Origin: Raillietiella orientalis
Taxonomy: Eukaryota
Length of the DNA stretch: 20,000 nt
Reading direction: 5' to 3'
Assembly (NCBI GenBank): GCA_036172245.1
Contig: JAYWIR010000021.1
Span: 3,346,645 to 3,366,644, forward strand
Shown: positions 1 through 20,000 of the stretch, piece after piece
Position numbering within the stretch: the first letter of the stretch is position 1
Layout: each line of letters starts with the position of its first letter
Notes under the pieces: generated by a model
Databases searched by the model: none
Told to the model about the DNA's origin: nothing
The model's input: only the letters and a program-made list of their open reading frames with translations
Position numbers and translations under genes: made by a program

Positions 1-140
1 CTTTCTGTTTTTCGAATGGTTGTGGTTGGTTTTCCCGTAAATATTTTTCTGTTCTTTCCTTTTTTTCTGTATGCGATGATCTGAAATGCATTGTGTTCAT
101 TTGTCCTTGTATTCGATGTACTTGATCTGTATAGTAGGAG

Positions 141-422
141 CTAGTCTGCCTCTTTCGCATGCTTGCTGGTCTCTTTGTGGTGAGGATTTCCTTTGGCGGT
201 TTCGGCGGGAGCTCTTGAGAAACGTTGGATTCGTTTTATCTGAGGTATCGTGGAGGGTATCGCTGTTTGGAAGCATCCCTGGAGATGCGGGGTTGCTGTT
301 GAGCTTCCTTCTTCACCGAGGATTGCGTGCTTTCCTTTTCGAAGTGACCTTTCCTGCGTTTGTTCTGCGGTTGTCCAGTTGTTTGAGGTGAAGCACCGCC
401 GCGTGCACTTTGCGTACGGCAT
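141..422 (-). pseudogene. rep: CRESS-virus replication initiator (Rep) HUH endonuclease domain, degraded
   Basis: MPYAKCTRRCFTSNNWT resembles RCR motif I (WCFTLNN); KHAILGEE..TPHLQGCF contains motif II (PHLQG); RAPAETAKG resembles RAHxExAKG; motif III (YCSKE) is decayed to HAKE; premature TAG at 141-143; a QGQ-like stretch follows in another frame. Confidence 0.85.
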
Positions 423-620
423 GTTGGAACTCTTTGGTGCGGGTGTTTTCGGTTTGATACGGTTTTGAAAGTGCCGAGGTCAGGGTCACCCTCTGCTGTT
501 TCCAAGTGGTTTTTGCGTAGTCGGTGTCAAATTGGAGGAATGTGAGGGTCAGGGGGTTCGTATTCTCTTTGTTCCCTTCATTTTGGAATGCATTAGGATA
601 CAAGAGGTTGCGGTGTGAGG

Positions 621-950
621 ATGCCTGTTGCAACACGTGCACCTCATCGTGCTGATCTTAGGAATGTTTGTTTACGTAAACAGCGTCGTAGACGTCGTGC
701 ATTGCATTCTCCTGGTAATCATCGTAAGCGTAATTCTATGAGGAGGCGCGTTAATGATCGTGGCAATTTTGGACGTGCTTCCTCCTGGATTGGGAATGTG
801 TTGCGTTCTGGTGCGCGTATTCGGTTTAGGGATTTCGGTTTCACGGAGGGTGCTTATACTGTTCGTCAAGAGCTGAGGCCTGTTGGCAGTGAAGGTTATT
901 ATGCCGATTTCCATAATAACTTTGCAACCACTTACGGAAACTTTTTCTGA
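621..950 (+). pseudogene. cap: Putative CRESS-virus capsid N-terminal part; broken remnants may extend to ~1140
   Basis: ATG at 621; Arg-rich N-terminus (RKQRRRRR...RKRNSMRRR) with many CGT codons; divergent from rep as in Circoviridae-like genomes. No recognisable capsid fold motif. Confidence 0.6.
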
Positions 951-1141
951 TCAAAAAGAGTCGAATGTGTTGAATTCTGAAGTAGGTGGAGACTATATAT
1001 GTAGAATAATTATGTTGTTGTGACAAATCCCGGATAGGAGGAAGATTTTGCGAATATGAAAAATCATGGTGATTCCTAAGGAATGTGGAATCAGCTGACT
1101 TGGCAGCAAAACAGATCTCCTGTGTTTCGTAAATTCTGCCT

Positions 1142-2706
1142 GAGGAAGCGCCGGGTGCCTTGGCGGTCGCATTCGACCTTCACAAGACGTTCGATTGCGT
1201 AAACCAAAGACTCCTCTTGGAGCTCTTGGAACGCCTCGGTCTCCCGGCGCAACTCCTGCATTACTTGCGCGCTTGCTGGCGCCACGCGCTAACGTGCATT
1301 TCTTTTAGTGGCTGCCACGTGTACGGTATTCCCGTACCCAGGAGCATCAGGCAAGGCGACAGTTTAAGTCCGTTGCTCTTTAGCATCTTGTTTGAGTTGG
1401 TGCTGAGGGCGTATAGGGTGACGCTGGAGTACCGGCCTAGCTCATGCCCGGGAACGCCTGCCGTGGCTGCCTACGCTGATGACTTGCTTCTTCTGCTCCC
1501 CATGTCCACCCCGACGTCCAGTGTCGAAGATTTCTTCGAACTGATCCGTCGGGTGCGGTCGTGAGCGTCAACAGAGGAAAGAGCGTGGTCGTTCCTGTGG
1601 GAGCGTCGTGGGAGGGGCAGCCCGACTGGATCCGCCTGGGGATCCACACGGCAGGGTATTTAAAGTACCTTGGAGTTCCGCTGGGCGACTCGGCACAGCC
1701 GAGGCGTCGTCGGGCTGCCTTCATAAGGCAGAGTTGGCCGCCAGCCCGTTCATTAAGGGCAGGTTTACCTTGCCGGAACGGGCGGCTATCAGAAATACCT
1801 TTGTGGCCCCCCTCCTCCGCCCCCCGTTTTTTGTTTTGAACCCCCCTTACGCGGCCAAAGAGCGGGCAAAACGCCTGCTAAGGAACGCTCTCTGGGGTCC
1901 GGGGCGATCCAGGATCCTCCTGAAAGGCCTGACGGCTCCATGTCGCGATGCCGGTCTTGGTATCCTGACGATGGAGCGGATCGGACTGCAAGTGCAGTTT
2001 CGGATGCTGGCACTGTGTGCCGAGCTATGGACTTCTCCCCTGTGTGCGCCCGCGCGCATCCTCCTACGGAGGTGTGCCGGAAGCGAAGGACTTCTTTCCT
2101 TGCTGCCAGGCATGCGTCACAGGAGACAGGGATTTGGCTATCCTTTGAGGCAGCTCACCACCTTGTTGGAAGCAAATAGATGGATTTCCTGCCGCCCAAT
2201 GAACTACAATGCATGGCGGCAGGAATCCATTGATTCCTTGGCTGCATTCTTAGGAATGAGCCACGAAAATCTTAGCCCCCTGCGTCACTTTCAACCTTGG
2301 TCACTCCAAAATGTGATGCAGGACGAGGTGAGGTTTTCCGCTTTGGCCATCACGCCCCTTGCCGAAGCATTGTCTGTCCTCGAGGTTCGAGAAGACAGTA
2401 GCCATCCGGGAAGGTGGGAGTTCTCCTGCACCATTGCAGGAAGAACGAAAGCACTTGTCCAATGGGCCACGAGCGAGCTTGCGGATGCCGCCACCCCTCG
2501 TGCTACGCCAAAAGGGTTACTTCGGTGGGGAGAAACTCTTGGTGTTGGAGGAACTTATAATCCCTCCCTGGTGTTTGGACGGCTCGGTGTTTCCCCTTGC
2601 ATGGAAGCAAGACGTCTTGCTCTTCTTGCACTGGGGCTTGCGCTACAACGAACGGCGCCACCGAGCTTGCGGTGGGGTGGCTTCACCCTACTGTGCACGA
2701 TGCGGC
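1142..2706 (+). mobile_element. Tx1/L1-type non-LTR retrotransposon fragment A: ORF2 RT domain to zinc finger, truncated at both ends, frameshifted
   Basis: AFDLHKTFD, IRQGDSLSPLLF, AYADD, VNRGKS, KYLGVPL, DAGLGI, then LHWGLRYNERRH..CARCG across ORFs 1160-1564, 1561-1839, 1608-2756 and 2359-2814. Confidence 0.92.
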
Positions 2707-2806
2707 CCACCTCCGCCGTGGTCGCACGCGTTTTTGGTGAGCTCCAGCGAGCGTAATCAAAAGCAGTTTTTTGTGAGTGCGGAAGTGCGGTCGTTGGAGG
2801 GCAGAA

Positions 2807-4440
2807 ATGCCTGAAGACGCCGCAACACCTGCGACGGGAGACGTGAGGCCCACGTCTCCCCAACCTATGGAGGTGGGGTCATGCCCCACCAGAAAATCAG
2901 CCCCCGCCACCCCGGCGAGGGCGTGGAACAAGGTGGCAGCGGCGGCTCCGCCGGACGTGGCCGCCGAAGTGCAGGCCTACATAAAGGAGGGCTACAACCC
3001 AGCCCTCCTTTACAAGGTAGGAAATCTTTATTCTCCGCTTACCACGCGGAAATTTGGAAACGCCATCCGTAGGATGGGAATCTCTGACGAGGAGATTCTT
3101 TGCTTCTCGATTCGGAGCGGCGGGCAGTTCGCGGAGCTGATCTGCAAAGATGCAGCGCTCACACACAAACTGCTCTGCACGCCCGTTCCGTTCGAAGGGC
3201 GGAATCTCCTCCCACACACGGTGGATCACTCTATGGTGATCCACCTCACTGGTACAACGGTGCGGATGACCGAGGAAGCCATCCGCACTGAAATCAACAA
3301 GTTCGCGGAGATATACGCGATGTGGTCGAAGCCCAACGCCTTTACTTATCGAGGCGCATTCAGTGGGCGAGTTGCCGCACGCGTAACTCTCCGCGAAAAC
3401 AAAGAACTTTTCCACAAGCTGGAGGTCAACGACGAGCTCGTCGACCTCTGGTACGTGGGGAAGGAAAAATACTGTGGGCTGGGCAACACATTCGGGCATC
3501 TTAAAAAGAGATGCCCGGATGCCACATGCCCAACCTGCGGCGCGAAGGGCCACACTAGTGCTGTGTGCCCGAAAAACGCCGCGACAACGCCTTCAGCCCC
3601 TTCGACAAATGAGGGGAAGAAGGCAGAAAACAAAAAAACGAGCGACCAACAGCCGACCTCAGAAGAAGTCGTGCAGAAGGAGCAGGAGTCTCAAGAGAAG
3701 ACTTCTGAACCAACTGCCGACGAGGAAAACTGGAAAGTCGTTTCAAACAAAAAAGCAAAAGAAACACACAAAAAACAAAAACTCCAAAAAAAAATAATAA
3801 TAATACAAATAAGAACGCGAGCGTTCCCAAAAAACCCGCGGTCGGCAAACCAAAAATTTCGCCGCGCGAGTCCATAAAGGAATGCCGCGTTAACATCGAG
3901 CGCGTTCCGTCGATCGAGCGTCGATCGGCGAACGCGACTCCCGCAACCGTCGCGAACGCCGCGGAACCGCCGCAGGAATCCTGCGACAAACACGCGAGTA
4001 GCAGCGACGAGAAAAACTTCGCGAAGGCGGCGGAGGAACTCGCGGCCACCTTAATGCAGCCGCCTAAGGCTGCAAAGAAGGCCGTCAGACGTCCGGCGGA
4101 AGTTAAGGGCCCGGAAACTTCCGGGTCCGAGGCAGAAGCCGGAAACCCTCCCACCGTCGCCCTTCCGAAGAGGAAGGCGGGCCGGAAGTCGCGCAACCCT
4201 CTGCGCATCGCTCCCCCTCAGGCTGAGGAGGAGGAGATGCGCTCGGATAGCGAGGAGGCGATGTCCGCGAGGTCGCGGGATCCCTCTATCGACAGCATCC
4301 GGTCGGTCCTTCCTATCGACCTCAGTCCGGCTGCAGACGTTCCGGTCGTTGCCGAAACGCCACCACCGCAGATGGACAACGACCAGCCGCCTCCCGAACA
4401 GGAGGCGGCAATACACACGCCACCACCATCATTAGTATGA
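2807..4440 (+). pseudogene. ORF1 gag-like nucleic-acid-binding protein with two CCHC zinc knuckles (copy B), one frameshift
   Basis: ATG 2807; YCGLGNTFGHLKKRC (first knuckle has lost a Cys) and CPTCGAKGHTSAVC; frame change in the A-rich tract ~3745-3795 into the frame of ORF 4054-4440; colinear with the copy G ORF1. Confidence 0.88.
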
Positions 4441-5326
4441 TGCGTGGAATCGCCTCTTGCCGGCAGCTGCGTATAGCCTGTTGGAATGTCAACGGGCTGC
4501 GTAGCGAAAGCAAGAGGCGTAGCGTGGCCGACACCCTGCGACCTTTCGACCTGGCACTTCTCCAAGAGGTGCATGCCCTCAGAGCAGAGGACGTCCAGGA
4601 AATCGAGAGGCTCACAGGGGGGAGGCTACTTTGGCGTGATGGAGGAGACCACTCCCGCGGAGTGGCCTTCCTGCTGAAGCCGGCCGTCGCCAATGCGGTG
4701 CGCAGAGCACAGTTCGACGAGGAAGGTCGAGTAGGACAACTTGTCCTCAAGTGGTCCGAATCGATCGACCTCGTAGTTACGAACGTGTGCGCGCCCTGCA
4801 CCAGCCACAGGCGCGCAGAACGCACTGCGTTCTTCGAAGCCCTGCGGCGAGACTGGCTGGCCGAAGCAGGCGTGCGGCGGGCGCATCTGATAGCGGGAGA
4901 CTTCAACGTCCGCCTGCTGTCGGAAGCGCCCGACATAAGAGCACAATTGGTCAACGAGTTGTGTGCGGCTATGCACACACGCAACTTGTTGGCCGATGAA
5001 GCCGGGGTGAGAAGCAGAATCGACCACGTGTTCCTCGATAACCACTTGTGTACGCGGGTGGGGACTCGAGGAGCAATTGCGTCGGAGCTGTCCGATCACC
5101 CTCGGCTAGTAAACAACATCCATCCGCGCGACAGAGGTCCACCCTCCGAAGCGTGGCGCCTGCCGGGGGACTGGTTGCGACTCGCAGGAGCACGCGAACA
5201 TCTGCGCGCATTCCTGCGTAGTTGCGAATTGCAGACTCTCGCTGACTGGGACAAAATAAAACGCTCAGTCCGAGAGTTCTGTGACCAGTTTCCCCTCCAT
5301 CAACTTCCTCCAGGTTTCGGCGATGC
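4437..5326 (+). pseudogene. ORF2 N-terminal APE-type endonuclease and linker (copy B), truncated before RT
   Basis: WNVNGL, LLQEVH, GVAFLL, NVCAP, IAGDFN, SRIDHVF and SDH motifs, plus L1/Tx1-like linker WDKIK..REFC. The last codons of ORF 4437-5354 run into the 3' end of copy C. Confidence 0.93.
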
Positions 5327-6946
5327 CACCCGGATACGCCGGGACGTTTATTAAAAACATTTCAACAGTCAATACAGAACGTGGTACAAGGCCCCACTGA
5401 CGGCCACGCAATACCGGAACTGCCGGGACACTGGGACGCAGCCCGGTGTGGCTCTCCTCGGCAGTGGAGGGGGATGGGGGAGAAAATAAAAATAAAATAA
5501 AAGAGAAAAACAAACCACAAAAAAAAAAAAGTTTGGAGGGCCGGGAAGGGATCACAGAAAACTGCTGGGAGCGCCCATCCTTTGCAGGATGCCTTCTAGT
5601 TCCATTTTCAGTTTTCCTAGATTGGGCCATCGGGTAGCTCTCTGCAGGAAGCGAGAAGCATACTCGATGACGTCCCTCACGATGCAGTCTTCATCTTCGG
5701 CATCACTCCAGGCCGCCACGATACCACGAATGCAGCAAAGTGCTGCCAGGGCTGCGGCTGGACTGAGGGCGTCCCGCACGAAGACAAGACTGAAGACACA
5801 TCCAACATTGCCACCATCCGGTATCCGGAGGGCCGTTTTCAGACGATCCCAAAGAATCTGGACGGCAGGGCATTCAACTAAGAGGTGGGGGAGCGACTCC
5901 CGCTCCCCACACCTGGCACACGCAGGATTTACTCTTCCCCGCGTCCAGTGGAAGCGGCGCGCGTTGCAGGGTAGACCCCAATGCAGCCACAGAAGCGCCG
6001 ATTCTTGCCACTTCAGGGGAAGAATCCTGGATCCAAGTAGAACCGGGGGTCACTTCAGGTCATCCAATCGGATGCCGAGCAGCTCGCCCCATCTTCTTAA
6101 TCCACGCGGCTGGAGACTAGGGGTCGTTGCATCTGTCAACTCTCCCATGGTCCAGCCGCTCATCATCTTCTCTCTGCCTGCGATACGGCAGCAGACTTGC
6201 CACCTTGGCTTCCGGCTTTCGTGAAGCACCCTTTGGAGGAAGGGCATCGCCGTAACAAGGGGTGCGCCTTCCGCCCACGTGTAACTCTGTGGAAATTCAA
6301 GAATTTCACGGAGAGTTCGGCGGGCGTAAAAGCCGACTCGCAGGCAGTTCATCCGGTCTTCGCACCTCTGGTTCTGCTTGGCCCAGGTGCCAACAGTCTC
6401 TTCCAGCCAAGCGGAGGAGTTGGCAGGGCCACAAACCATCCAGTCGTTCTCCTTTGCCAGGGTTGCCATGCGGCCGAGCGGTAGACCGCATCTTCGAATC
6501 TTCCGGCCAGGGCACAGAAGAAACGATGCAAGTCCTTCGCAGCGGGACACACGCCTGGCCAGGAGGCGGGCCGGAATGCATCGAGCGGTGCTCCACATCT
6601 TCGCTGTGATGGCGAGGGTCCGCCATCGCAGCTGCTTCTCCACGCGCTCCAGCGTCCGGATGCTGAGACCGCCGTCCCGACGCGGAGCGCACAAGTCCTT
6701 CAGAGGCAATCGGGGCCTCCCCTTGCCCCAAAGGGCGATACGGAAGATGTACTTTGTCCTCTTCTTCGATTCCACGGTGGGGGGGCAAACAAAAAGCAAG
6801 GGGCGGAGGATGAGGGCCGAGAAGGCGTTCCAAACCGCGGCCCGTTTCGGCAAGTGAAACTTCCCTTCCAGGAACGGGCCGATCGCCGTCTTGACTTTTT
6901 GGAGGCAGCTGGACCACGCTTCCGCAGGGGAGTAGTCCCCCAACGG
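5327..6946 (-). mobile_element. Tx1/L1-type fragment C: post-RT ORF2 C-terminus, zinc finger, 3' UTR and 3' end
   Basis: PLGDYSP..DGGLSI..LHWGLPCNARRFHW..CARCGERESLPHLLVEC; internal TGA at 6050-6052; ORF2 stop at 5552-5554; T-rich 3' UTR; AATAAA at 5347-5352; terminal hairpin at 5329-5343. Confidence 0.92.
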
Positions 6947-7270
6947 GCCATCGGGATGCTATTCGCAGAAAGCGAGCTGCAAACTCCATGCCATCCCTTC
7001 CGTTGACATCCTCTGCTTCGTCGGATCCACTCCAAGCTGCCACAATACCGCGAACGCGGCAGAGAGCTGCTATTACAGCGGCTGGCTGCAGGGCGTGCCG
7101 CACGAAGAGGAGCCGAAAAACGTCTCTGGGAAGGCTACCATTCCGGATCCCTAAGGTGGAACCGAAGCGTTCCCACAGGGGCCGGAGGGCAGCACAGTCA
7201 ACTAAAAGGTGAGGGAGGGTTTCCCGCTCCCCACACCGGGCACAGTTTGCGTTCACACTCCCCCGTGTCC
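6945..7270 (-). mobile_element. Tx1/L1-type fragment D, distal part (zinc finger and C-terminus)
   Basis: TRGSVNANCARCGERETLPHLLVDC..RIASRWP continues the ..HHWTRGS reading that ends at 10038; fused to fragment C over a 2-nt overlap at 6945-6946. Confidence 0.88.
7257..7270 (+). repeat. Left target-site duplication of copy G (ACTCCCCCGTGTCC)
   Basis: 13/14 match to ACTTCCCCGTGTCC at 10038-10051; removing the insert restores the host ORF2 reading. Confidence 0.88.
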
Positions 7271-7281
7271 TTCTAGGGAGC

Positions 7282-7288
7282 GGACGTG
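7282..7288 (+). promoter_or_regulatory. DPE-like GGACGTG motif in the LINE 5' UTR (variant GCACGCG at 2724-2730 in copy B)
   Basis: Matches RGWCGTG, known from internal promoters of arthropod LINEs; lies closer to the apparent 5' end than the canonical +28. Confidence 0.4.
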
Positions 7289-7364
7289 GTTTGGCATCGC
7301 TCCACGGACTGGTTAGTGGGAAGCTTTTCGTTGGTTGTCTGGTGTGTGGGAGCACCGGTGTCCC

Positions 7365-9081
7365 ATGGAAGAAATGCCTGAGGACACCGCGATGGAAGTT
7401 GGAGTAGGAGAAGCGACATGCTGTCCTCCATCAATGAAAGTGGGGGCATCCGCCCCCCCGGAATCCCTGGCACTTGCCCCATCGGAATCGGGGGCAACCG
7501 CCCCTTCGCGACCCTCTTCGCCATTGGCGAGGAGTTGGAGTGACGTCGTTGCTGCACCATCCCCGGATGCAGTAGCGGAGCAGACTGCCTACAAGGACAG
7601 CGGCTACAAGCCGTCTCTGATCTATAAGGTAGGCAGTGTGTTTGATGAAAAAATTGCACGCTCCTTCGAAATGGAGCTGCAAAGGTTGAACGTGAGGGAG
7701 GAAGACCTTGAAGGCCTATCCGTCCTTAGTGGAGGCCAGCGAGTTGAGCTGACATGAAAAGAGGCAAGTCTGGCGCAGCGACTGCTGAACACCCCTATTA
7801 CGGTGGACGGCCGCAGGATCTTCCCTGTGACGGAGGACCGCTCCGTCGTGATCCACCTCACGGGCGTATCACTCCGAATGGACAAAACCAGCGTCCATGA
7901 GGAGTTGTCGAAGCATAGTAGTGTGCACGCGTATTGGGCCAAACCCAATGTCTTCCGAACGTACGGAAGGCTATTCAGTGGGATGGCCGCAGCCCGCGTC
8001 ACCCTACCAGAGAATGGTGGGCTTCCCCACAAACTGAATATCGGCGAAGAAAAAGTCGCGGACGTACGTGGGTAAGCCCAAGTATTGTGGCCATTGCGAT
8101 GCTACAGGGCATCTAAAAAAACGGTGCCCTAACATCCAATGCCACTTATGTGGAAATAAGGGCCACATCCGTAAGGTGTGCCCAAGAAGAGAAATCCCGT
8201 CCCCATCCGCTGCCAAAAAGACAAAAGGGAAACGCACGGGAGAGACGCATACACAGAAACAGGCTGTAAACACCCAGATGTCAGTCCCTAAGCCCTCACA
8301 GCAAACGTCGGTTGAGAACACTCCCGACGACGCTGGTGACGGCGAAGGCTGGCAGACGGTACAGCCACGAAGAAAACCCGGGAGTCCCGAACGAAACGCG
8401 GTGAAAACAAAAACGCAGCGCGAAAAACCGTGCCGCGAAAAGCTCCGCGCGTGTTCAGTAAAATTAGGACGTGTGGAGGCACCCGATGCCGCCGCCGGGG
8501 GAGCAATCCCCCCCCTCGCGTCCGCCGAAGCCGCGACGGTCGATGGCGAACCCTCTGGGGAAACAGAGGGGGAACCGCGCGCCGCGCTCGACGCGATCGA
8601 GGAGGCCGCCTTCCAGCAGGCGGTGGAAGAAATCGCGGCTGAACTGCAAGGCCGTGAGAAGAACTCCCGGAAAGGCTTACGAAGGCCGGCCGCGAGGAAG
8701 GCTCCGGATGCAGGTGAGGCCGATCCGGATGCTGGAAGTGCGTCCTCCTCAACGGAGGCGCCACCAAAGAAGACGGGACGCAAGTCCCAGAATCCCAGGA
8801 GGCGCGTACGGATCAAGAAGGAGGAGGATGAACTGGCACTCGAGGGGGAAGCCGGCAGCGTGGGAGGCGAGGGTGGGAATCTCTCATTTCAAGACACCGT
8901 GCAGCTGGCGACCCCCATGGAGGAGGAAGTACAGGTGGGTGAAACCCCCCTTCCTCTGCACGGCCCTGACGAAGACTCGGCCCCCATGGAGGAGGGAGAA
9001 GCGATGCGCGACGCACCCCCTCCTCCTAGCGTCCCGCCAGACAAGGTGGCGGGAGCCCCATTGCCACTTTCCCAGGATTAA
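7365..9081 (+). pseudogene. ORF1 gag-like protein with two CCHC zinc knuckles (copy G)
   Basis: CGHCDATGHLKKRC and CHLCGNKGHIRKVC; premature TGA at 7755-7757 (Cys in copy B); frameshift near 8064. Confidence 0.9.
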
Positions 9082-9819
9082 CACCTGGGCTCGCCTGTCG
9101 CCGTAGGATCCGCGTAGCCTGCTGGAACGTCAACCGGCTGCGCGACGACGGCAACAGGCGGGATACGGCCGACACCCTGCGCGACTTCGACCTGGCGCTC
9201 CTGCAGGAGATTCACGTGATCACCGCGGAGAACGCTCAGGAGATCGAGAGGATCGCAGGGGGTCGTCTGTTTTGGCAGTGAGGCGCTCGCAACACCTGTG
9301 GCGTCGCCAGAAACACTTGGGCGGAGACGACCCCACTGGCCACGGCGCTGCCCTTCCTACGAAGGGAGCTTCAAAACAGCCGGAAGCCGAGATGGCAAGT
9401 CTCCTGCTGGATAGCGGGCAAGGAGAAGGATCTAAGCGGGTGGACAATAAAGGAACTGGCAGACGCCGCAACCCCAAGCGTTCACCCGCATGGAATACGG
9501 AGATGGGTCGAGCTGTTTGGCATCCCGGCGGATAATTACCCTAGAGTGGCCCCCGTTATTTAGAGACGCATCCACCCTCCCCCTCAAGTGGCAGGAAACG
9601 GCGCTGTTGTTGTTGCACTGGGGTCTTCCCTGCAACGCGCGCCGCCACCACTGGACGTTGGGGAACGTGGGACAGAACTGTGCAGTGTGCGGGGAGAAGG
9701 AATCCCTCCCCCATCTGTTAGTGGACTGCGCTGCCCTCCGGCCCTTGTGGGAACGTTATGCTACGACCCTCCCTATGCCGGTCGGCAGTACCGAGGGAAA
9801 GGATAGTCTCTTCCTCTAG
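9081..9819 (+). pseudogene. Internally deleted ORF2 of copy G (endonuclease N-terminus joined to C-terminal zinc-finger region)
   Basis: ACWNVNRL..LLQEIH..GVA is joined at GCC (9306-9308) to RNTWAETT..; later LHWGLPCNARRHHW..CAVCGEKESLPHLLVDC. Confidence 0.88.
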
Positions 9820-10037
9820 CGGGTTGTGATCCCTTCCCGGCCCCCCAAATAGTTTCTTTTTGTTATTTCATTTATTTTTCTTTTTGTTTCACCCCCTATC
9901 ACCTCCGCTGCCGAGGAGGACAAGCTGGCCTCAGAACCGGCTTCCTGGCAGGTCCCATGAAATATTGGCCGTAGCGGGGCCTAGTACCTCAAATGCAAAG
10001 CGTTTTTTAATAAACGCCCCGGCGTGACCGGGTGAAA

Positions 10038-10051
10038 ACTTCCCCGTGTCC
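10038..10051 (+). repeat. Right target-site duplication of copy G (ACTTCCCCGTGTCC)
   Basis: 13/14 match to 7257-7270. Confidence 0.88.
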
Positions 10052-11240
10052 AATGGTGGCGGCAAGCATTGCAGGGGAGTCCCCAGTGCAACAGCATCAG
10101 CGCCGACTCCTGCCATTTTAGGGAAAGGATGCTTGTTCCAGTTATCACTGGAGGCCACTTCAGGTCATCAGTCGTGATGCCGAGCAGCTCGCCCCATTTT
10201 CTAAGTCCTTGCGGAAGGACGCTATGGGTTGTGGCGTCCGCCAGCTGTCCCATTGTCCAAACGCTGAACAATTTTTCTCTGCCTGGGATACGGCAAGAGA
10301 CTTGCCACCTTGGCGTCCGGCTGCTGACGAGGGCCCTACGTAGGAAGGGCAGCACCGTCGCCAGGCAGGTCGTCTCTGCCCACGTGCTTCTGGCTGGACA
10401 CTCCAGGATCTCGCGTAGAGTGCAGCGGGAGTATCTGCCCCGCCGCAGGCTATTCCACCTCTCGTGGCTCCTCTGATTCACTACCGCCCACGTGCCAACT
10501 GTTTCTTCCAGCCATGCGCTGGAGTTGACGGGGCTGCGGATCATCCACGCATTCTCCCTCGCCAGGGTGGCTCCTCGGACGAGTAGAAGGCCGCATCATC
10601 TTGTCTTCCTTTCACGACATAGAAGAGATGCGAGTCCTCCCGTTCCGGATGCACGTCTGGCAAGGAGGCGGGCAGGAACACACCACGGGGTGCTTCACAA
10701 CTTCGCTGCGATGGCCAAGGTTCGCCATCGCAGCCGAATTTCCATGCGCTCCAGCGTCAGGAGGCCAAGACCACCATCACGACGCGGAGCGCACAAGTCC
10801 ATCAAAGGAACTCGGGGCCTCCCCTTGCCCCAAAGGGCGATGCGCAGGAGATCCTTTGTACTTTTTTTCATATTCATGGGGACGGGGCAAACAAAAGTAT
10901 TAATGAAGGATAGGGGCCGCAAAAGCGTTCCATACTGCGGCCCGTTCCGGCAAGTGGAACTTGCCCTCCAGGAACGGGCGAATCGCCAAATCCACTTTCT
11001 GAAGACGGCCTGACCATGCTTCTCACGGGCAGAAGTCTCCCAGCGGAACGCCAAGGTACTTCAGATGTGTGCCCGTCGGGATCCCCAGGCGGATCCAGTC
11101 AGGTCGTCCTACCCACGTCGCTCCAACTGCCACCATCGACGATTTTGCCCTGTTGACCCGTGGCCCTGTCCCACGGCTTAGTAGGTCGAAGAAATGTTCG
11201 ACCGCCGTTGCCGGAGCGGACATTGGGAGCGGGAACAGCC
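10038..11240 (-). mobile_element. Tx1/L1-type fragment D, proximal part (end of RT to zinc finger)
   Basis: LPMSAP..VNRAKS..DWIRLGI..LKYLGVPLGD..DGGLGL..LHWGLPCNACRHHWTRGS with several frameshifts; closer to C than to A. Confidence 0.9.
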
Positions 11241-11850
11241 GGAGCGAGTGCCCGGCAACAGCGAGAGCAGTCCTCCGCTGCCGGCGCATCTCCTCAGGAG
11301 AATGCGTGCAGGCACACACTGGGGGGTTGTCCACAGCTCGGCACACAGTGCAGCAGTCGGAACTGCTCCTGCAGTCCGATTCGCTCCATTGTCAGGATGT
11401 CCAAGCCAGCATCTCGACGTGGAGTTCCGAAGACTTTCAGGCTGATCCTGGATCTCGCCGGTCCCCAGAGAACGTTCCTAAGCAGGCGTTTAGCCCGCTC
11501 TTTTGCCGCGAAGGGAGGTTCTAACAAAATAAACAGGGGGTGGTGGAAGGAGGCCACAAAAGTATTATAAACAGCCACCCGTTCCATCAAAGTAAACTCG
11601 CCGTTAATGAACAAGATGGTGGTGGACAACTCTGCCTTCTGAAGAAAGTCCGACCACGCTACGGCTGCGCCGATAGCGCCCAACGGAACGCAAAGTACCC
11701 GACCGTAGGGATCCCCAGGCGGATCCAGACTGGATCCGCCTGGGGATCCGGACTTCCCGTCCCACGACGCACCCACTGGAACAACCACGCTGTTCTCTCT
11801 GTTGATGAAAAATTGCAGCGTCGTCCCACAACGATCACAGAACGCCCTCA
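11241..11850 (-). mobile_element. Tx1/L1-type fragment E (end of RT and thumb region), same subfamily as A
   Basis: VVPVGASW..AAKERAKRLLRNVLWGPARSRI..DAGLDILTMERIGLQ closely matches fragment A; homology is clear to ~11806 and weak to ~11850. Confidence 0.88.
11709..11749. repeat. Perfect 41-bp palindrome (20-bp arms, 1-nt spacer)
   Basis: GGATCCCCAGGCGGATCCAG-A-CTGGATCCGCCTGGGGATCC; absent from homologous A and D. Confidence 0.95.
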
Positions 11851-11904
11851 GTAATCTACCCTTTTTCCAAGCAAGTTCTGTCTGAAACGTCCCTGCCTAC
11901 CGTT

Positions 11905-12337
11905 TAACAGCACTGCAATGATCGCAGCAATTACCGCATATGCAGAAACGTTAGCACGATCCAAGACATACAATAGGCACTTTGTATACAACTTGGAGAA
12001 TGTGCCTTAATTCTCAAAGTCTCCTTCTTCTGATGCTTTCATCGCAGCTACGTCATCTTGATGTATTGCATTGCTCTTTCCAAATAATGGACCAAGTTGG
12101 AAAAAGAGAGCAAAAAGCAGAGTTGCCTAATATGAAAATAGCAGTAATTGGCAAGTGGTGCGTAAATTGCTAAAGAACTCCAGGCCAAAATAGAAGAGGA
12201 GAAAATACTATGATTTTCACCAATGTGGATGTCAAGATCGGCCGAAACATATGCGTTGCAGCAGCAGTAAATGCACCCTGCAAAGGTGCTCCCTTAATTA
12301 CTTTACGATCAGCATATTCACTTACTACTATTGCATC
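11905..12337 (-). pseudogene. Bacterial AcrB/AcrD/AcrF-family RND efflux permease fragment (Rickettsiales-like), decayed lateral transfer
   Basis: DAIVVSEYADRKVIKG..MFRPILTSTLVKIIVFSPLLFWPGVL*QFTHHLPIT.., then after a frameshift GPLFGK..MKASEEGD..LYTKCLLYVLDR; matches the RND TM4-TM6 region; stops at 12170-12172 and 12007-12009; AT-rich relative to flanks. Confidence 0.85.
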
Positions 12338-12438
12338 TAGAGTGACGCTCCATTTCATATATTAATTATGTTTTTGCAAGTTGGCCTGCGATATTTTTGC
12401 AGTCGTCGTCTATAAATTCTAAATTTCAGAAATTGTAC

Positions 12439-12522
12439 CGTATTAATGGCACGCCGGAAGCTAAAGGCTTCAGCACCTCTTAATTCTCCAACTAGTATTC
12501 GATCTGGCCCAAGTCTTAAGCA
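12439..12522 (-). pseudogene. virB11: Type IV secretion ATPase VirB11 fragment (Walker B region)
   Basis: 28 codons [28 protein letters not shown], close to the VirB11 motif [29 protein letters not shown] as I recall it from Rickettsiales; too short for the ORF track. Confidence 0.87.
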
Positions 12523-12529
12523 TAGGATG

Positions 12530-12698
12530 TTTTTTGTTCTCAGTCCCCACCTCCCACACCCATTTGGAACCTACAGCTTTCCTGGCATGCGAACCGTTGG
12601 TGTTTTTGAGTTTTGCTTTTTGGTAGGCTTCAGCGGGAGGAAGCAACTGTTCCCTGCTTGTTCATGGAAATAAACGTCCCCTCGTGACAGGGAAAAAA
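12530..12698 (+). mobile_element. Solo 3' UTR and 3' end of a related Tx1/L1-type element
   Basis: AATAAACGTCCCCTCGTGACAGGG-A6 mirrors the termini of C and G; upstream T-tract, CACCTCC and GAACC..TTCCTGGCA blocks are shared with the G 3' UTR. Confidence 0.72.
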
Positions 12699-13058
12699 CT
12701 TCATGCCAAACATTGTCGTGAATTCCTTCTCGAACGGGAGAGGTTGGGGTGCAGGAGAGAACATTCGGACGTGTAGTGCGCGCGAGCTCAACAGCATTGC
12801 ATTGTCCCCGCGCGCAGCATCCCTCCATTAGCCTCCTCCTCTGCAGAAAGAGTCGATAGGCTTTCTTCTTGGTTCTGGAAGCGGCATTTGAACGGACGAA
12901 GGCAGTGAGCGGTTCCCCGCGTCTCGCCTCTCCATTGCTTTTCCTCGGGTCGCACACCCCGTGCCTGCTGTCGTCAGGCAGCCGTCGACGCACGCTGAGC
13001 GCCTCCGGCACGGGACATGGGTCTGACAGAGGACCTGCGTATGCTTGGTTTTCCGCGG

Positions 13059-14160
13059 GTTCGCTGCTGGCGATTGTGCCTCTGCAGCATCAGGAGTGCA
13101 CAGAGTGCTACCATCAGGGCACCTGCCTCTGGTGCCTCTCTCACCTCAACTGCGTTGTTCGCAGGGGCACCTTCGTGGATGGGTGCGGCTTCGGCGTCTG
13201 CTGCAAAGTTCAGGCACGACACCCGCCCGGCTGTTCCAGATTTTCGCACCCTGAATCCGGATCCCAGTGTTCATCACGTGGAATCGCACCATCTCTGCCA
13301 ACAACACGTTCTCTGTCAACACACTGGAGGTCGTGTATGCTAAAGGAACCTTCCAGGAAAAGCTAAACAAAGGCGACTCGTCCGCGTTCCAGTAGAGATA
13401 TGCGGAAAGGGAGGACACGCGGTGAATAAGGAGGATCTGGAGGATGGAAGCACGGAGACATACGCCAATTCCCCCCCCCCCCATTGCAGGAACGACGGCG
13501 TGCCCATTGCTGCATAGCGGTGGGAGAGCATGGCAACTGGTGCGTTGCCAAGGTGGAGTGCGCCCTGAGATCACCAATCGCGTGCCTTCTGTGCAAGGGG
13601 GAACTTTGCAGGAATGCCACAGTAGGTGGCATGTGTCTGCATTCAACGGGGGCGCATATCCTTCCGAATCTGTCGCCTCCACAACTCCTTTCCTCCGGCA
13701 ACTTCGAAGGCAGAACCGGGAACGCACGGCCCTTCGTGCTATCTCTGGCACTGCACGATAAAGGCATCTGCTGAACGGATTCGCTCTCCGTTTCTTCCGG
13801 AGGGAAGGGTCCAGCCATCCGCTACCTCTGAAATGCGCTTCGAACAAGAGCAACCACTTTGAGCAACCGTCGAGGTCCCTCTCTCCGATTGCCTTTCGGC
13901 AAATGTGCGTCCGCGTTTTACCGGATGTCCGGAAACTCGCTTGCATGCCTTGCTTGAGGAAAAAGGGGAAGAATGGGAGACGTCTGTCCAGAAATTCCTG
14001 CTGGACGGCGGCTTCCTGCCCGACCATCCTTCCATTGTACGTCCCTTCCGACACGGACGTTTATCAACACATTATTACGGCGACCTTGGGGTCCTTGTCC
14101 ATGGACCTCATTTGCATGTGGATAATCCGAATACTGCAGATGCACCTATTGCGCCTGGCC
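13059..14160 (+). pseudogene. Decayed paralog of the neighbouring CUB-domain gene
   Basis: Exon remnants 13059-13208 (SLLAIV..GTCL..GFGVCCK), 13268-13397 (130 bp, same length as the paralog exon, TAG at 13393-13395) and ~14036-14160 (LYVPSD..WIIRILQ); splice sites mutated (GCGG and CAT acceptors, TT and AT donors). Confidence 0.8.
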
Positions 14161-14527
14161 TGGACTCGTTCGTTCTTTGCTCTTCCGAAAGGAATGCGAA
14201 AAGCGAAGTATTATCCCAGTATGTAGAATCCCAGGAGCTCGATATGAAAAGTATTGTAAGGCGAGTCCATCTGGCCTTTGCGTTCGATTCTTCCCACCGC
14301 ACCATCCACGAGGTTTCCTCAGCTCTTCCGAAATCACGCAAACAGCAGCGACATCGCAACGCCGAATATTTCATTTTCAACCTTAAAGTGCCTATCTGCA
14401 CCGAATACATGAGCATCCTCAAGCAGCATCACGCCCATTGCATGTGGTTCGCAGCAGTTATCCTTGCAAACCTCCGGCGGCAAGAGTCACAGTCCTTTCT
14501 CAACCCACGAGAGGTACAGAGCAAACT

Positions 14528-14533
14528 TTTATT
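14528..14533 (-). promoter_or_regulatory. Polyadenylation signal AATAAA of the CUB gene
   Basis: Starts 24 nt after the TAG at 14558-14560. Confidence 0.65.
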
Positions 14534-14557
14534 GCTATACCAGATATCAGCAGATCA

Positions 14558-17500
14558 CTAATTCACTTGATTGTACATGAGGTTGAACCCAACGTTCCTC
14601 GCCATGGTCATCACAGCGTTGTTTGTTTTGATGTGCAGCATGAATGGAAACACGGCAGCTGAAAGCACAGATGACTCCGAAAACCTATACTGATCGTTAT
14701 CTTACTGCACACTTGAGATCCAGCATTCATCCCAGTTACAGCGTTTAGCCAATTCCCGCAGAAACGCTCTTGCGTGCACATTGGGTTGGCCGCAAGAACA
14801 GCAGCCTGAGCACCACCGCAAGGGATGATAAACGCATCGTTGACACAATTTGCTGCTACACTGTTGCTCAAGGAAGTCGCAGCAGTCGCGTCAATCGAGA
14901 AACCAACGTCGGCCATGTTGGGTATCGCATTCAAGCACAACGCCCTGGCTCCAGGGGTAGCCCTCACACACATCGCGTATTCCAGGTTGGTATTTAGAAC
15001 CGACATGACGTTGTTCATCCAGCCAAAGGATACGATCATACCTGTGGCCTCAAGGAAGTACTGAAGGCATCCGATGGGAGCTGCAAATGAGAAAACACTT
15101 TGAATTCACCCCACTCTATCCGCATCGCAGTGAGGATGCGATAGGGTGTTCTGTGAATTAACTGTCCGCTTCCATTTCAACATATAATTTGGCACAACCC
15201 CTTCATTCCGCTGGGAGTTTTTGCTATTGCACAGACCAATGCAGCGTCAAGGAAGCTGCGAACCCTCCACTGGTCATGGAGTCGACCGACCTCAGCAACA
15301 ACCAAAAGGCGGGACATGCCATCGTCAAACAGGAAACCCCTGCCGTCAGCTCCGCCGCTCGCATTGCGAAATCGAATGGGAGTTCCCAACAAATTTACTG
15401 CTCTTTCCTTGCGACATTCTTTTTTCTAAACTACGGCATGCACCATGTCCCTTTTAATTGCACGTTCGGTGTCTCGCGGGAGGGAGAATGGGGTGGTACG
15501 CGTAAAGGGATATTCGCGGCAGCCATTGCCACAACGGTGCAACCTCCTACAGCGCGTGGGACAGGAAGGGCAGAGCTTTCTTTGGGTGGGTAGCCAATTC
15601 GACGAAGCATGGAATGGGACGGTTCCATCCACTTACCCAGATACTCGGATCCGGATTCGATCTGCAACACACGGATGGACCAGGATCTTATTTCCATAGG
15701 CATCGCAGAGGCGACCGTGATGACTAGCATAACTCCCGTCGTTGCAGCGTCCATCCTCACGTACACTAAAATCCAGAAGAGGGGGGGCTTAACTATGCCA
15801 GCTGGCATTGGGGTTCTGTGTCTTCTGATTGTACTTCAGTCAAGCTCTTTTGGCCAATATCCGCAGCGACTTCACGGATATGTGTCCAAGAGCCCGGCAC
15901 CGCTGATTCATACCAGCGGACACACGCCGACATGCCACGTAGGCAAAGACAGCAGTGGCACCCTCTTTTCCGAATTCGCTTCGGGACTCTAACAGATGCA
16001 CAAAAACAGGAAGACCTTTCGAGGGTGCAGAAATCTTTCGGGACTGTGTCACCAACCTACGTCCCTTTCACCAATACACTTTGGGAGGACAACCCCCGTG
16101 GTACGAGATCAGCACCGCGGATGGCAAGAGCGATGTTTAGCTAACATTTCCAGGGACGTTTGGTTCCCATTCCTGCAGGACTGTTGCTTGGATTTGCTCT
16201 TCTATCTCTAAAACCGCAGAAAGCCAACAGCAGCATTGCAAGAGAGAAGCGTTGGTCCGGCAGACTCGAGCGCGAGAGATGGGAGTCGGCTCTCCGCATC
16301 CCCCTCTGTGGTGCCGCACACGGCAAGCGAACCGACGATCTTCAGCGGTCAAGCCGCGCCGAAGATTGGCAGCGCTGTTTCGGAAGACGTACTCAATTCA
16401 GCGGCTTCCTATGACTACGGTCTCACACGAATGGCGCCAATGCTGGTGCTTGCCACTTACCAGCGACCAAAATAGTTACTTACGGTGATTGTTCGGGTTC
16501 GGTCCGCAAATCGAGGAAGGGATGCTTTGTAAAGATCCGCTACCCATGGGCGTTATCACCAACGAATCCGGGTCGCATTGCCCGGTGGTACGCACTGCTG
16601 ATCGAAGAGTCAGGGGCTGTAGTTCGATCCTGAAATTCACAGGTGCTTGTAAATCAAATTCTCCTCTGTGTCCCTGCTTTGCCACCGAAAATTGACCCCG
16701 TACATCCCAGCAGGGAACAAACAGCGCTTGTGCGAGAGGGAAGTGCGTGATGAAGAAGCGCGGTCAGCAGTCCCTCGGCTTTTCTCACTGTGCATCAAAC
16801 AAACGAGCGGTGCCTTCATGCCGGGAGCTCTTGAGGCAGCTCCTTCTCATTGCATGCGACCTTTCTCCCCCAAAATAGGCTTCCTGCGGTATCTTCTCCC
16901 GCAGCTTGTGCTTCCCTTTGGGCTTCCTGACCTTTACACGTATTCTGATTCCCGATGGCTACCAAGCACGTGTACAAGCTCATACCCTTCGGTTCCGCGT
17001 TTTTCCGGCTTCACAATTGGTGGACGTTCGTTTTCCATTCTCGCAGGAGGAGAAATGCAGAAAGAATTCTATTTATGCTTTGCTTTATAGAAGGGTGTTG
17101 CCGCACCCAACAGTATCGTGGAATCTCACTCCCCCCTACAGCGTGGCGCCTGTCGTAAACTTCCACAGCAAAACTGCCTGATGCTGCATGCAAGTGGATG
17201 CGCTTCCCGTGGAAACGACTTGCTCGTCCGTCTTAGCGTTCGTGTTTTCCAATGTGGCGGCAAGAACTGCAGATCGACTTCGGTTGACGGTGTTTGCGAT
17301 CGTCTTCCCGGTAGGGTCCTCATCCCAACGGCTGCTTGGCTTCTCTACCTCAAAAGCCACGTCTGGAGCGGAGACGTTCATCGGCGTAGCCAAATTTGAC
17401 AGACACTTGGGAACCATCGTGGGTGAAACGAATGTCGATGGACAAGATGCTGCTCACAGCTACCAAAAGGGAGGCTTCGCAGGCACTGAAGCCTTTTACG

Positions 17501-18716
17501 ATTCGATGGTGATCAGCAACCATTCCAGGATCAGTGGGCTCTCTCGCGCTGTGAGATGACGAGCTGCTTGACGAGCGAGACTCGCGTCATCCTCCATTGT
17601 GTAGCTAATTGAGATCCTATTCCGTTGCCTACGTTCTCTTTCAGCACACTACTCAATATTCGAATAGAACCGAATTTCCGAAGGTCGTCCGTTGCCCGGG
17701 GATCCACTTGTGGGTTCGAACTGCTCCCTCGTCCTCACCTGAACTGTTGGATACGCGAGTTGAGTTTCTGGACCGTCGCTTGGCATGTCCCTCCGGTCGT
17801 TAGGACGTCCGTCGTGTTCTCGAAGTACGTATTGTTTATTCTTGAACTTTGCCCGCATCCAAGTATCACTTTGGAAGTTTGACCATTTTCGGCATGGGAT
17901 CATTGCGGGTCTTACCTATGCAGCAAACACCGATCCCCAGGGCGCATTGACCATTCCTCAAACCACCGGCATTTGAGCACTCTCCAGGAGGAAGGCACGT
18001 CCCGTTGCGCGAGTTGACGAAGCAAGGCGTGTTTTGTATCCGCACTATTTGCATCAGTGAACCTGAAGAGGAGGACGAAATGATGAGTACTCGGTGGTGA
18101 TCCCGAAACGCCATTTACGTTTGCCACGAAAATCGTGCCCGTCGAAGAAAGCGTCATTGGGTGTCATCGCTTGACACTGTCGGCGAAGTTCCAGTTGCAC
18201 GCGTTTTGAGGAATGCTTTCAACAGGAATGGTTTCGATCGTCCAACGAGGTCATACGCTGGCGTGGGAAGGATTGGGAAGAAGCACGTGGAGGGAACATT
18301 CGGGAATAAGGAGATTGAGGAGGTGCACGACTTCGATTCCTCTCGTGCTTCGCCCTAGGCCACCTGACTGAGGACGAATGGCTGCACTCAGCAGGCGCGT
18401 TCTTCTCGAACTGGCAAGCACAGAGGAATCCGTGCAAGAGGGCAGCTGCCCGACGGCATGTGCGCCTCTGCAGCTCGGCCAAGTCGACTCGTTTGGCATG
18501 GCGGTGGTGAATGTGTGTGTGGATGTGTGCGAGTGGGTAGGAAGGTGGATGTGTGGATGCATGCGTGTGCTTGTGTGTTCGGAATAGCCTCAAGCGAAAA
18601 CGCGCAGAGGTCCGCGGAAGCACTCGTTACTTACGGGATTGGTGTCTTGAGGTTGTGTTTGCTGCTTCTCCCTGCATGCACGTCATGACGAAAATTCCCA
18701 AAATCCACGCACACAT
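14558..18716 (-). CDS. Secreted arthropod-type CUB-domain protein, 7 coding exons, 369 aa (386 aa if ATG 18767 is used)
   Basis: Exons 18635-18716, 17916-18062, 17739-17868, 16484-16629, 15637-15765, 14706-15080 and 14558-14658; all GT-AG and phase-compatible, 1110 nt in total; signal-peptide-like MCAWILGIFVMTCMQGEA; NGTC..EC..GG..G.CA.G.GVCC module; NNTYF, ICGPN, APIGCLQYF, RFCG and GFNLMY motifs. Confidence 0.9.
18503..18579. repeat. Degenerate (GT)n low-complexity tract in intron 1 of the CUB gene
   Basis: Interrupted GT/TG dinucleotide runs. Confidence 0.6.
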
Positions 18717-19806
18717 CTCGAAAATCGCGCAGCCACCTTGGTAACCACCTCGAGTTGTCAGCTCCATGGATGCAATTCCCTCGGTTTGCGGCAACCCTTA
18801 GATGAAAACCTCTCCGCAAGATACGTTTTTTGTGAACAAAATGATGTTCTTGAATGACAAAAGAGGAAAACGGTGAGGTCAGTTTTTTTTTTCTCCAATG
18901 TGCGTTTGTGAGTTTTTGTGTCTGCTGGGGATGCCCGTTATTCGGAAAGGGCCGGTTGTGGTTCCATGTTCTGGTGTCTGGGGAAATACCAGTGGATTTA
19001 AAGAAAATCATTTCGGTCTTTCAATTTTATTACATTAATTTAGAACTTTTGCTGGATCTTTCTCTGTAGGTCTGTTTCATGAGTAACAAAGACACTCTAC
19101 GGATTCGTATAGGGCAAAACAGGAGTGGTGTTCTTTTCTGCTCTGATCAAAGGACGCTCTCCAAGCAAACTCCTCGGTTCTCGCAAGTTTCGCAGGCAAA
19201 TGGTCAACTGCGCTTGCAGGCGAGCGGGCGACGAGACCTTCCAGAAGAATGGTATACGACGCAGTGCAGCCTTACTTTCCCATGTGCTTTACATGCTGAA
19301 CGTCCATTCACACTCAGTAGTCCATGTGGGGTAACAGAAAGTGGCAAAGGAGAAAAGCCTCACATGCGATGTGGCAGCATTTTTTATCGCGTTCTGAATC
19401 AAATGTGCGTTTTAGATAGCATCCGGAACGCGCATTTGATACCAACAGCCGGCCGTTTCTGTTCTGCTGCGAGCAGACTCTTTTGGTATTCGAATTGACC
19501 GTGTCAGTGTAGGGCTCGCGAATTGATGTGCCGTTCTACTGGTGTCTGAGGTAGCTGACGGGACTTTCCTTCCTAATGGAGTTTCAGCGAAGGTCTCCAA
19601 CATGATGGCAAAGGCGGTGGCAGGTGTCGCGTTGCAACGGGGACGGCTGTCCATCGAAGTCTGTCGAAGTGATGACCGCGTAGCTGCCCACGTCCACTTC
19701 GATGGCGGAATGGGGGATAAACGAAAGTTTTGTTCCTAACGTTTGTCCTGATTTTTTCTTTTTCTGCTGCGGGGCTCGTGTCTTTCAGCCCTTCGTGATG
19801 GCTTCC

Positions 19807-20000
19807 TTAATCCCGAATAAGGATTTGCATGACGGATTCGCTCTTCCTGTTGTCCAGAGGGATGGTGACCTGCGACCCGATGACGCTGAATTGCAGTTCC
19901 AACAAGAACAACCACCGTCCTTGACCCTCGCTCACTTCGCCGTTCCCGCAAACATGGTGTCGGCCTTTTCGACGATGTCGAGAATCTCTGTGGTGCTTAT
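19807..20000 (-). CDS. Probable last two coding exons of an unidentified upstream host gene
   Basis: Exons 19936->20000 and 19807-19885 joined by a 50-nt GTGAG..TTCAG intron give ..ISTTEILDIVEKADTMFAGTANVIGSQVTIPLDNRKSESVMQILIRD*. No family recognised. Confidence 0.5.
   Translation of the reverse strand, partial: KHHRDSRHRRKGRHHVCGNGEVSEGQGRWLFLLELQFSVIGSQVTIPLDNRKSESVMQILIRD

Follow-up and report, generated by a model that had tools for sequence, protein, structure and literature searches.

Four joined fragments of Lariskella-type symbiont DNA, probably a non-functional relic, in a retrotransposon-rich region of the Raillietiella orientalis assembly

The DNA analysed here, called the window, is a stretch of 20,000 nucleotides from the Raillietiella orientalis assembly GCA_036172245.1 (contig JAYWIR010000021.1, positions 3,346,645 to 3,366,644), and the element in question is an island of bacterial DNA that includes a broken piece of an RND efflux permease gene. 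The island measures about 717 bp (11825-12540) and consists of four joined Lariskella fragments. It is best explained as a non-functional relic of DNA from a symbiont of the Lariskella lineage that lies in a host chromosome rich in long interspersed nuclear elements (LINEs), a reading to which a probability of roughly two in three (0.68) is given. The host is a eukaryote, probably an invertebrate, and it is inferred that no protein is expressed from the island.

The RND piece is on the minus strand, where it runs from 12337 to 11912 and corresponds to residues 399-543 of a 1040-aa protein, that is, from transmembrane helix 4 (TM4) to about TM7. A previous reading of the sequence alone (hereafter, the sequence-only reading) had described a decayed permease fragment of Rickettsiales origin at 11905-12337, and these limits are right to a few bases, as the DNA homology covers 11912-12337 (blastn against the Lariskella reference genome, G934). 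The motifs on which that reading was based, DAIVVSEYADRK and PLLFWPGVL*QFTHHLPIT, are present on the minus strand of 11905-12337, and the two stops and the frameshift were also found there; a 6-bp deletion had gone unmentioned. The segment was correctly seen as AT-rich, with a GC content of 0.405 versus 0.58 and 0.56 in the flanks. The minus-strand reading of the piece is DAIVVSEYADRKVIKGAPLQ...PLLFWPGVL*QFTHHLPITAIFILGNS and, after the frame change, it continues as LFALFFQLGPLFGKS...EEGDFEN*GTFSKLY...YAVIAAIIAV.

A read-through of 102 aa, with X at the stop, was searched against a database of 5.8 billion proteins, and 142 of the 196 candidates matched at E<=0.001. The best matches were the RND permeases P0003 (E 1.7e-31) and P0004 (E 1.3e-30), well outside what chance would give. 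P0004 is the RND permease of the Candidatus Lariskella endosymbiont of Epinotia ramella (NCBI name) and belongs to the NCBIfam family RND_permease_2 (E 2.2e-157). At the DNA level, the piece matches positions 99075-99508 of G934 with 82% identity (E 4.9e-121). The Pfam profile PF00873 (ACR_tran) gave 16.1 bits for the 63-aa open reading frame (ORF) and 26.2 bits for the read-through, whose match spans profile positions 401-479 of 1021; both scores are under the 28-bit cut-off, the latter only just, because the piece is short. PDB matches of the short pieces were also weak (best E 0.0015), and a scan of genome contigs with the broken peptide returned distant RND genes alone, with 37-51% identity (Marinobacter, Granulosicoccaceae, Myxococcota and Verrucomicrobiota). 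When P0004 was used as the tblastn query, its residues 399-477 and then about 478-531 were placed on 12337-11947. No further pieces of the RND gene were found in the 20-kb window, either by tblastn with the whole of P0004 or by blastn with G934.

The defects of the piece can be located precisely on the minus strand. An in-frame TAG at 12170-12172 takes the place of a conserved glycine (GQF), and an in-frame TAA at 12007-12009 takes the place of a leucine (ENLG). Compared with G934, 2 bp are deleted at 12118-12119, causing the frameshift (the exact site is ambiguous within a TCTCTG run), and an in-frame deletion of 6 bp between 12097 and 12096 changes QPSLGP to Q--LGP in the alignment. Hence, homology to the RND permease family is present, but neither the full length of such proteins (some 1000-1100 aa, comprising twelve membrane helices and two large loops in the periplasm) nor an uninterrupted frame has been kept, given the two stops and the 2-bp deletion. 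Over residues 399-543 of the intact MdtC-like permease P0004 (1040 aa), 116 of 140 comparable residues are identical; the window retains 14% of that gene, with two stops and a frameshift, and no pump is possible. Only three of 41 conserved columns are changed in the fragment, and at least three such changes are also seen in 5 of the 63 control clade members. The case for non-function is therefore made by the truncation, the stops and the indels and not by heavy erosion of residues. Together, protein homology, DNA identity and the tree described below identify 11912-12337 as a pseudogenised fragment of an RND efflux permease.

Concerning the donor, the whole fragment read through its breaks (143 residues, with X at each break) was 80% identical over 145 columns to P0003 and P0004 alike, and the next best among 120 proteins reached 59%. 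In a maximum-likelihood tree of 120 rows, the fragment, P0003 and P0004 formed a clade with a Shimodaira-Hasegawa-like approximate likelihood ratio test (SH-aLRT) value of 100. This trio was nested in a 64-row clade (SH-aLRT 98) with every named Midichloriaceae sequence (Cyrtobacter, two Fokinia, Bandiella and two metagenome-assembled genomes), and the sister of the 64-row clade was a 13-row clade of Wolbachia and Anaplasma. The RND proteins of these last two genera share only 46-50% identity with the fragment (46-47% for Wolbachia). Frameshift-aware homology and phylogeny, the check proposed in the sequence-only reading, thus confirmed an RND permease hit within a Lariskella clade. The affinity to Wolbachia and other Anaplasmataceae proposed in the same reading did not hold, because those proteins are distant (46-50%) and form the sister clade, and the fragment falls within the Midichloriaceae next to Candidatus Lariskella. 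The order, Rickettsiales, had been assigned correctly in that reading, and by its sequence the RND fragment is placed with Candidatus Lariskella (Midichloriaceae, Rickettsiales).

The genome searches pointed in the same direction. The RNA family alpha_tmRNA was found in all five candidate genomes, indicating Alphaproteobacteria. Searches of the phylum, the class and three small orders yielded no Midichloriaceae. In an order-level search, 39 of 400 scored genomes matched at E<=1e-20; G934 was the best, with 79%, followed by a genome with 63%. G934 is a 1.6-Mb genome, and every one of its matches to the window is on its contig C1. Its RND ORF is 99.9% identical to P0004 over 1040 residues and 95.5% identical to P0003, and therefore G934 stands for that Lariskella lineage. 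It is the sole genome of its genus in the collection searched, in which its family is represented by 47 genomes, and it was the best match among these 47 for every piece of the island. The comparison of G934 with the rest of the family gave 82% versus at most 73% for the RND piece, 94% versus at most 82% for the rpoC piece, and 86% versus at most 85%, over a shorter stretch, for the virB11 piece. The closest relative of the four segments at the DNA level (82-94%) is thus an intracellular symbiont genome.

The RND fragment, which was all that the sequence-only reading had recognised, is only one of four co-oriented Lariskella pieces; the rpoC, intergenic and virB11 pieces had been missed. Comparing the whole window with G934 by blastn gave exactly four matches, all on the minus strand of the window and the plus strand of G934, and no match elsewhere in the 20 kb. 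In the direction of the minus strand, they are virB11 (12434-12518, 86% to G934 at 0.926 Mb, 925863-925947), an intergenic segment from upstream of groES (12336-12407, 86% to 1.547 Mb, 1547052-1547121, E 2.6e-15), the RND permease (11912-12337, 82% to 0.099 Mb) and rpoC (11825-11904, 94% over 80 bp to 1.243 Mb, 1243048-1243127). The pieces, of about 72-426 bp, all point the same way and follow one another head to tail, separated by 0-28 bp of filler, and their donor loci are 0.1-1.5 Mb apart in G934. None of the pieces has a start codon and none exceeds 14% of its gene. Three stops, together with the 2-bp and the 6-bp deletions, were counted in about 610 coding bases, and the GC content of the pieces (0.33-0.51) is lower than that of the flanks (0.56-0.58).

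The virB11 fragment, from a type IV secretion ATPase, comprises about 35 codons on the minus strand (12434-12540) and ends abruptly after ...RAINT. It matches the NCBIfam model NF010475 VirB11 (E 2.2e-12, profile positions 218-258 of 333) and Pfam T2SSE (E 0.0026), as well as proteins of VirB11 size, with 79-83% identity over about 30 residues, and a word-indexed protein search with this scrap gave no match. Pairwise identity to the G934 ORF (337 aa, plus strand) can be recognised to about 12540. A similarity of GCGRWGLRTKNIL, upstream of 12540, to VirB11-like proteins was considered and discarded, as no DNA identity stands behind it. Between the virB11 and the intergenic pieces there is an AT-rich filler of about 26-28 bp (12408-12433), for which matches to G934 are at chance level (17 bp, E 0.34). 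The intergenic piece corresponds to an AT-rich spacer between ORFs of G934, 470-540 nt upstream of groES (in the region upstream of groES/groEL), and it was found in G934 alone among the 47 family genomes, with no match in the other 46. No Rfam family matched this piece or its region in G934; in the whole window nothing reached the gathering score, and the only match around the island was at chance level (E 0.78).

At the other end of the island, the rpoC fragment (RNA polymerase beta' subunit, 11825-11907, minus strand) comprises about 27 codons and carries a TGA at 11848-11850 in place of serine, where G934 has TCA; the corresponding ORF in G934 is on the plus strand. Its identity is given by the NCBIfam model TIGR02386 (E 7.4e-7) and by beta' chains in PDB (E about 1e-5), and the junction between this piece and the RND piece is an overlap of a few bases. 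An alternative assignment of 11806-11910 to the LINE region that follows the YADD motif of the reverse transcriptase was rejected, since TIGR02386, the PDB chains and the G934 alignment all identify rpoC. A continuation of rpoC as 'IFHQQ' past a frameshift was not accepted either, the DNA alignment giving at most a weak, indel-rich continuation. The NCBIfam scan covered 39 proteins (37 ORFs of the window and the read-throughs P0001 and P0002), and the bacterial families were confined to the island; elsewhere there were two weak matches at chance level.

The differences between the island and G934 contain information about when they arose. The RND piece shows 70 substitutions in 426 sites, with 14/142, 11/143 and 45/141 at codon positions 1, 2 and 3, respectively, and the Nei-Gojobori method gave, for 139 codons, a synonymous divergence (dS) of 0.61, a nonsynonymous divergence (dN) of 0.089 and a dN/dS of 0.145. 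The divergence is mostly synonymous; therefore, the donor was a Lariskella lineage distinct from the reference, and the divergence arose under selection in bacteria. At the same time, a dN of 0.089 is above what usual constraint would give at a dS of 0.61. This pattern of substitutions is consistent with evolution in bacteria and a subsequent brief period of neutral change. From the excess dN, assuming a bacterial omega of 0.02-0.1, the neutral change since insertion is estimated at roughly 3-8%, and a similar upper limit on decay follows from the rpoC piece, where 80 bp contain 5 differences. Regarding the sequence-only reading, which had spoken of an old integration, the statement on age has to be softened, because most of the divergence is synonymous and precedes the insertion, with a neutral decay of roughly 3-8%.

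Sequencing coverage was examined in one public run (X1), for which contigs of 92-739 bp with contig-level depth are listed and which may be the source of the window itself. Contigs over the RND piece differ from it by 10/189 (11937-12125) and 4/207 (12126-12332) positions. The depth over this piece is 2.3-3.9, with one bin (11924-12007) at 9.2; a unique piece of the flank (12831-12962) has 0/132 differences and a depth of 3, and the LINE parts have a depth of 16-20. The run gave no cover at 12344-12763 and 13016-13500, which is uninformative as the contigs are short. This coverage fits host-borne sequence. Moreover, since the contigs differ by 2-5% over the RND piece, the symbiont-derived block may have additional copies or divergent alleles.

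The island sits on a single contig between 11 kb and 7 kb of LINE-rich sequence, with reverse transcriptase (RVT_1, 6.5e-11) and endonuclease (Exo_endo_phos, 4.8e-14) domains in the flanks according to Pfam; an integration into eukaryotic repeat DNA, as had been supposed, is supported by these two domains. The rpoC piece adjoins LINE fragment A (11249-11808, minus strand), a 5'-truncated fragment of the region after the reverse transcriptase domain, which has the same orientation as the four pieces and is 76% identical over 11249-11805 to positions 1568-2112 of the window (blastn). The sequence CATCA is common to both sides of this junction. Fragment A is truncated on the 3' side too (about 11208-11249), where it stops at the equivalent of residue 203 of the 403 residues of the reference ORF. 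In the next element, LINE copy C, homology ceases about 370 nt short of the ORF end, and no 3' end is present; a 200-bp 'fragment B', considered for a time as a separate LINE piece, turned out to be the start of copy C. A direct repeat of 9 bp, TTCCTGGCA, occurs at 9942-9950, near the truncated end of copy C, and at 12579-12587, just outside the virB11 end of the island. In the regions compared, chance would give about 0.1 such repeats, and the interpretation of this one as a target-site duplication was rejected, the repeat being at chance level and copy C having no 3' end.

As to how the island was formed, symbiont DNA would have been released in germ-line cells and inserted at a chromosome break. 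Several fragments could have been ligated by end-joining; or deletions could have left only four remnants, all in one orientation, of a much larger collinear insert, which requires that the circular donor genome be wrapped once. In either case, the block would then have drifted neutrally by a few percent. The order of the pieces (0.926, 1.547, 0.099 and 1.243 Mb) is indeed monotonic with one wrap of the circle, but this order is uninformative because half of all orders need at most one wrap. Some observations weigh against an origin as a DNA relic. Random ligation would give four pieces of the same orientation, as observed, with a chance of only 1/8, and the adjacent LINE fragment A also has the orientation of the pieces. 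The route through deletions requires three very large deletions that leave abutting scraps by chance. Furthermore, the junctions rest on one assembly, and none of the listed X1 contigs is shown to bridge any of them.

The shared orientation would also follow if the material captured had been RNA. According to this explanation, which is regarded as unlikely, the reverse transcriptase of a LINE, working on LINE RNA, switched templates onto bacterial transcripts, taking up rpoC mRNA, RND mRNA, a transcript over the region upstream of groES and virB11 mRNA in this order, the product being a single mosaic cDNA joined 5' to a truncated LINE copy, comparable to the U6/L1 chimeric retrocopies. The rpoC, RND and virB11 pieces are in fact all in sense, share their strand with the 5'-truncated LINE fragment A and precede it on its 5' side (chance 1/8 for random orientations), although a collinear DNA remnant equally predicts co-orientation relative to the donor chromosome, and adjacency to a LINE is expected anyway in so LINE-rich a window. 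The intergenic piece is directed toward groES, a gene of the same strand in G934, but nothing there indicates a transcript, with 7 promoter-like sites versus 7.4 in shuffled sequences and no Rfam family. Short pieces (72-426 bp) from unlinked loci with 0-28 bp of filler, the CATCA shared at the rpoC/LINE junction and the overlap of a few bases at the RND/rpoC junction would suit template switching. However, the LINE side is incomplete: fragment A is cut 3' and copy C has no 3' end, so that there is no complete target-primed insertion with a tail, and the sole flanking direct repeat is the 9-bp one at 9942 and 12579, of which about 0.1 would arise at random. For human somatic cells, it has been suggested that bacterial sequence was integrated by way of RNA, as far as the available text of that report goes (PMC3688693). 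If RNA capture were true, bacterial RNA and not DNA would have been written into the germ line in a symbiont-to-host transfer driven by a retrotransposon, and symbiont scraps across the genome would be biased to the sense orientation and to the 5' junctions of truncated LINEs.

Two other explanations are much less probable. The island could retain a function, for example as part of a cluster of the PIWI-interacting RNA (piRNA) type or as a non-coding transcript directed against the symbiont, and the dense array of transposon fragments in which it lies is typical of loci that give rise to small RNAs; RNA-seq reads on some Midichloria-derived cassettes in Ixodes are likewise mentioned in the accessible part of a recent report (PMC11617991). 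This is judged very unlikely, as no open frame survives and the pattern of change fits neutrality after the insertion. The least probable explanation is an assembly artefact in which host repeats were wrongly connected to reads from a living symbiont similar to Lariskella. Assemblies of invertebrates often contain symbiont reads, and the listed X1 contigs show no junction-spanning read, but a live symbiont would give intact genes and the island has the stops and indels described above; four loci up to 1.4 Mb apart lie within 717 bp of a contig that continues on either side into LINE-rich sequence (11 kb and 7 kb), and the X1 depth is low and host-like. Live contamination had already been doubted in the sequence-only reading; the stops and indels speak against it, as does the loss of all but 143 of the 1040 codons. 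A relic of inserted symbiont DNA is hence preferred to these explanations.

The closest described case is that of the Midichloria-derived cassettes of Ixodes ticks: the available portion of the report describes about 40 cassettes derived from Midichloria mitochondrii in the nuclear genomes of Ixodes ricinus and I. inopinatus, mostly under 0.1-0.4 kb (PMC11617991). As in that case, the island is made of short fragments of a Midichloriaceae symbiont that probably lie in a host nuclear genome. The cassettes, as given there, are 92-98% identical to the symbiont, whereas the island pieces are 82-94% identical to the reference, mainly because the donor lineage differs from the reference. Compared with the cassettes as they are described in that portion of the report, the island also differs in its donor, Lariskella, and in the joining of four unlinked pieces, all of one orientation, next to a LINE. 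In the available text of the literature on Lariskella, including a paper on cytoplasmic incompatibility, no host-integrated Lariskella DNA was found. The island is, then, an ordinary kind of symbiont-to-host relic, with a donor genus for which no earlier report was found.

Wolbachia inserts, the classic parallel to the island, are carried in the germ line, are usually pseudogenised and often lie in repeat-rich regions next to retrotransposons. Such nuclear inserts were reportedly described in insects and filarial nematodes by Dunning Hotopp et al. in 2007. The island differs from them in the donor family, the RND protein of Wolbachia being 46-47% identical and belonging to the sister clade. 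Mosaic loci of nuclear mitochondrial or plastid DNA (NUMTs and NUPTs) consist of distant organelle fragments that were ligated before or during insertion, with little filler, microhomology at the junctions and mixed orientations of the fragments. The island resembles these mosaics in its concatenated short, unlinked fragments, in the scarcity of filler and in the microhomology where pieces meet, but its donor is a facultative bacterial symbiont and all four orientations agree. Chimeric retrocopies of the U6/L1 type are made by template switching of a LINE reverse transcriptase. Like them, the island has foreign pieces in sense at the 5' end of a 5'-truncated LINE; unlike them, it is not bracketed by a LINE 3' end, a tail or a convincing target-site duplication, and one of its pieces is intergenic in the donor. 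No literature was found that links template switching with lateral transfer from Wolbachia, and only for somatic integrations in humans has passage through RNA been proposed, to the extent that the available text covers (PMC3688693).

If the island is such a relic, it is a molecular fossil indicating that the host lineage once carried, or still carries, a symbiont of Lariskella type, and Lariskella would join the genera of Rickettsiales that have left DNA in host chromosomes. There is also a risk of false positives, as scraps of this kind could be mistaken for a live symbiont or for a resistance gene in screens by polymerase chain reaction (PCR) or read mapping, the rpoC piece being 94% identical to the reference. 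In addition, as four unlinked pieces next to a LINE all have one orientation, the island makes it possible to ask whether some symbiont-to-host transfers pass through RNA.

The rest of the window (1-11250 and 13100-20000) is filled with truncated copies of LINEs. They belong to two subfamilies that share about 40% protein identity, and they occur in both orientations. Pfam matches were obtained for 6 of the 96 stop-to-stop ORFs of at least 100 aa (RVT_1, Exo_endo_phos, zf-RVT twice, zf-CCHC and a weak Viral_Rep). Gag-like ORF1s with CCHC knuckles are found at 2777-3874 and 8038-9078, an apurinic/apyrimidinic (AP) endonuclease at 4251-5351, and the 3' ends of LINEs meet tail to tail near 9820-10030. 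A word-indexed protein search with the LINE endonuclease ORF gave no match, and a look-up of protein clusters gave generic endonuclease clusters. Within LINE fragment A there is a perfect 20-nt palindrome, GGATCCCCAGGCGGATCCAG / CTGGATCCGCCTGGGGATCC (11709-11749), with related copies at 11075-11103 in LINE copy C and at about 1613-1645 in another copy; it is predicted to be a conserved hairpin-forming feature of this LINE family.

Two ORFs of a different kind were also observed. At 14614-15105 (minus strand), in a stretch of lower GC, a cysteine-rich open frame of 164 aa has no match in Pfam or NCBIfam and may be a host exon. At 144-479 (minus strand), an ORF of 112 aa resembles the Rep nuclease domain of circovirus-type viruses (circular Rep-encoding single-stranded DNA, or CRESS-DNA, viruses), with FT.NN-like and PHLQG motifs; its matches are weak (PF02407, E 0.0035; PDB 2hw0, E 0.012), and it is possibly a fragment of an endogenous viral Rep.

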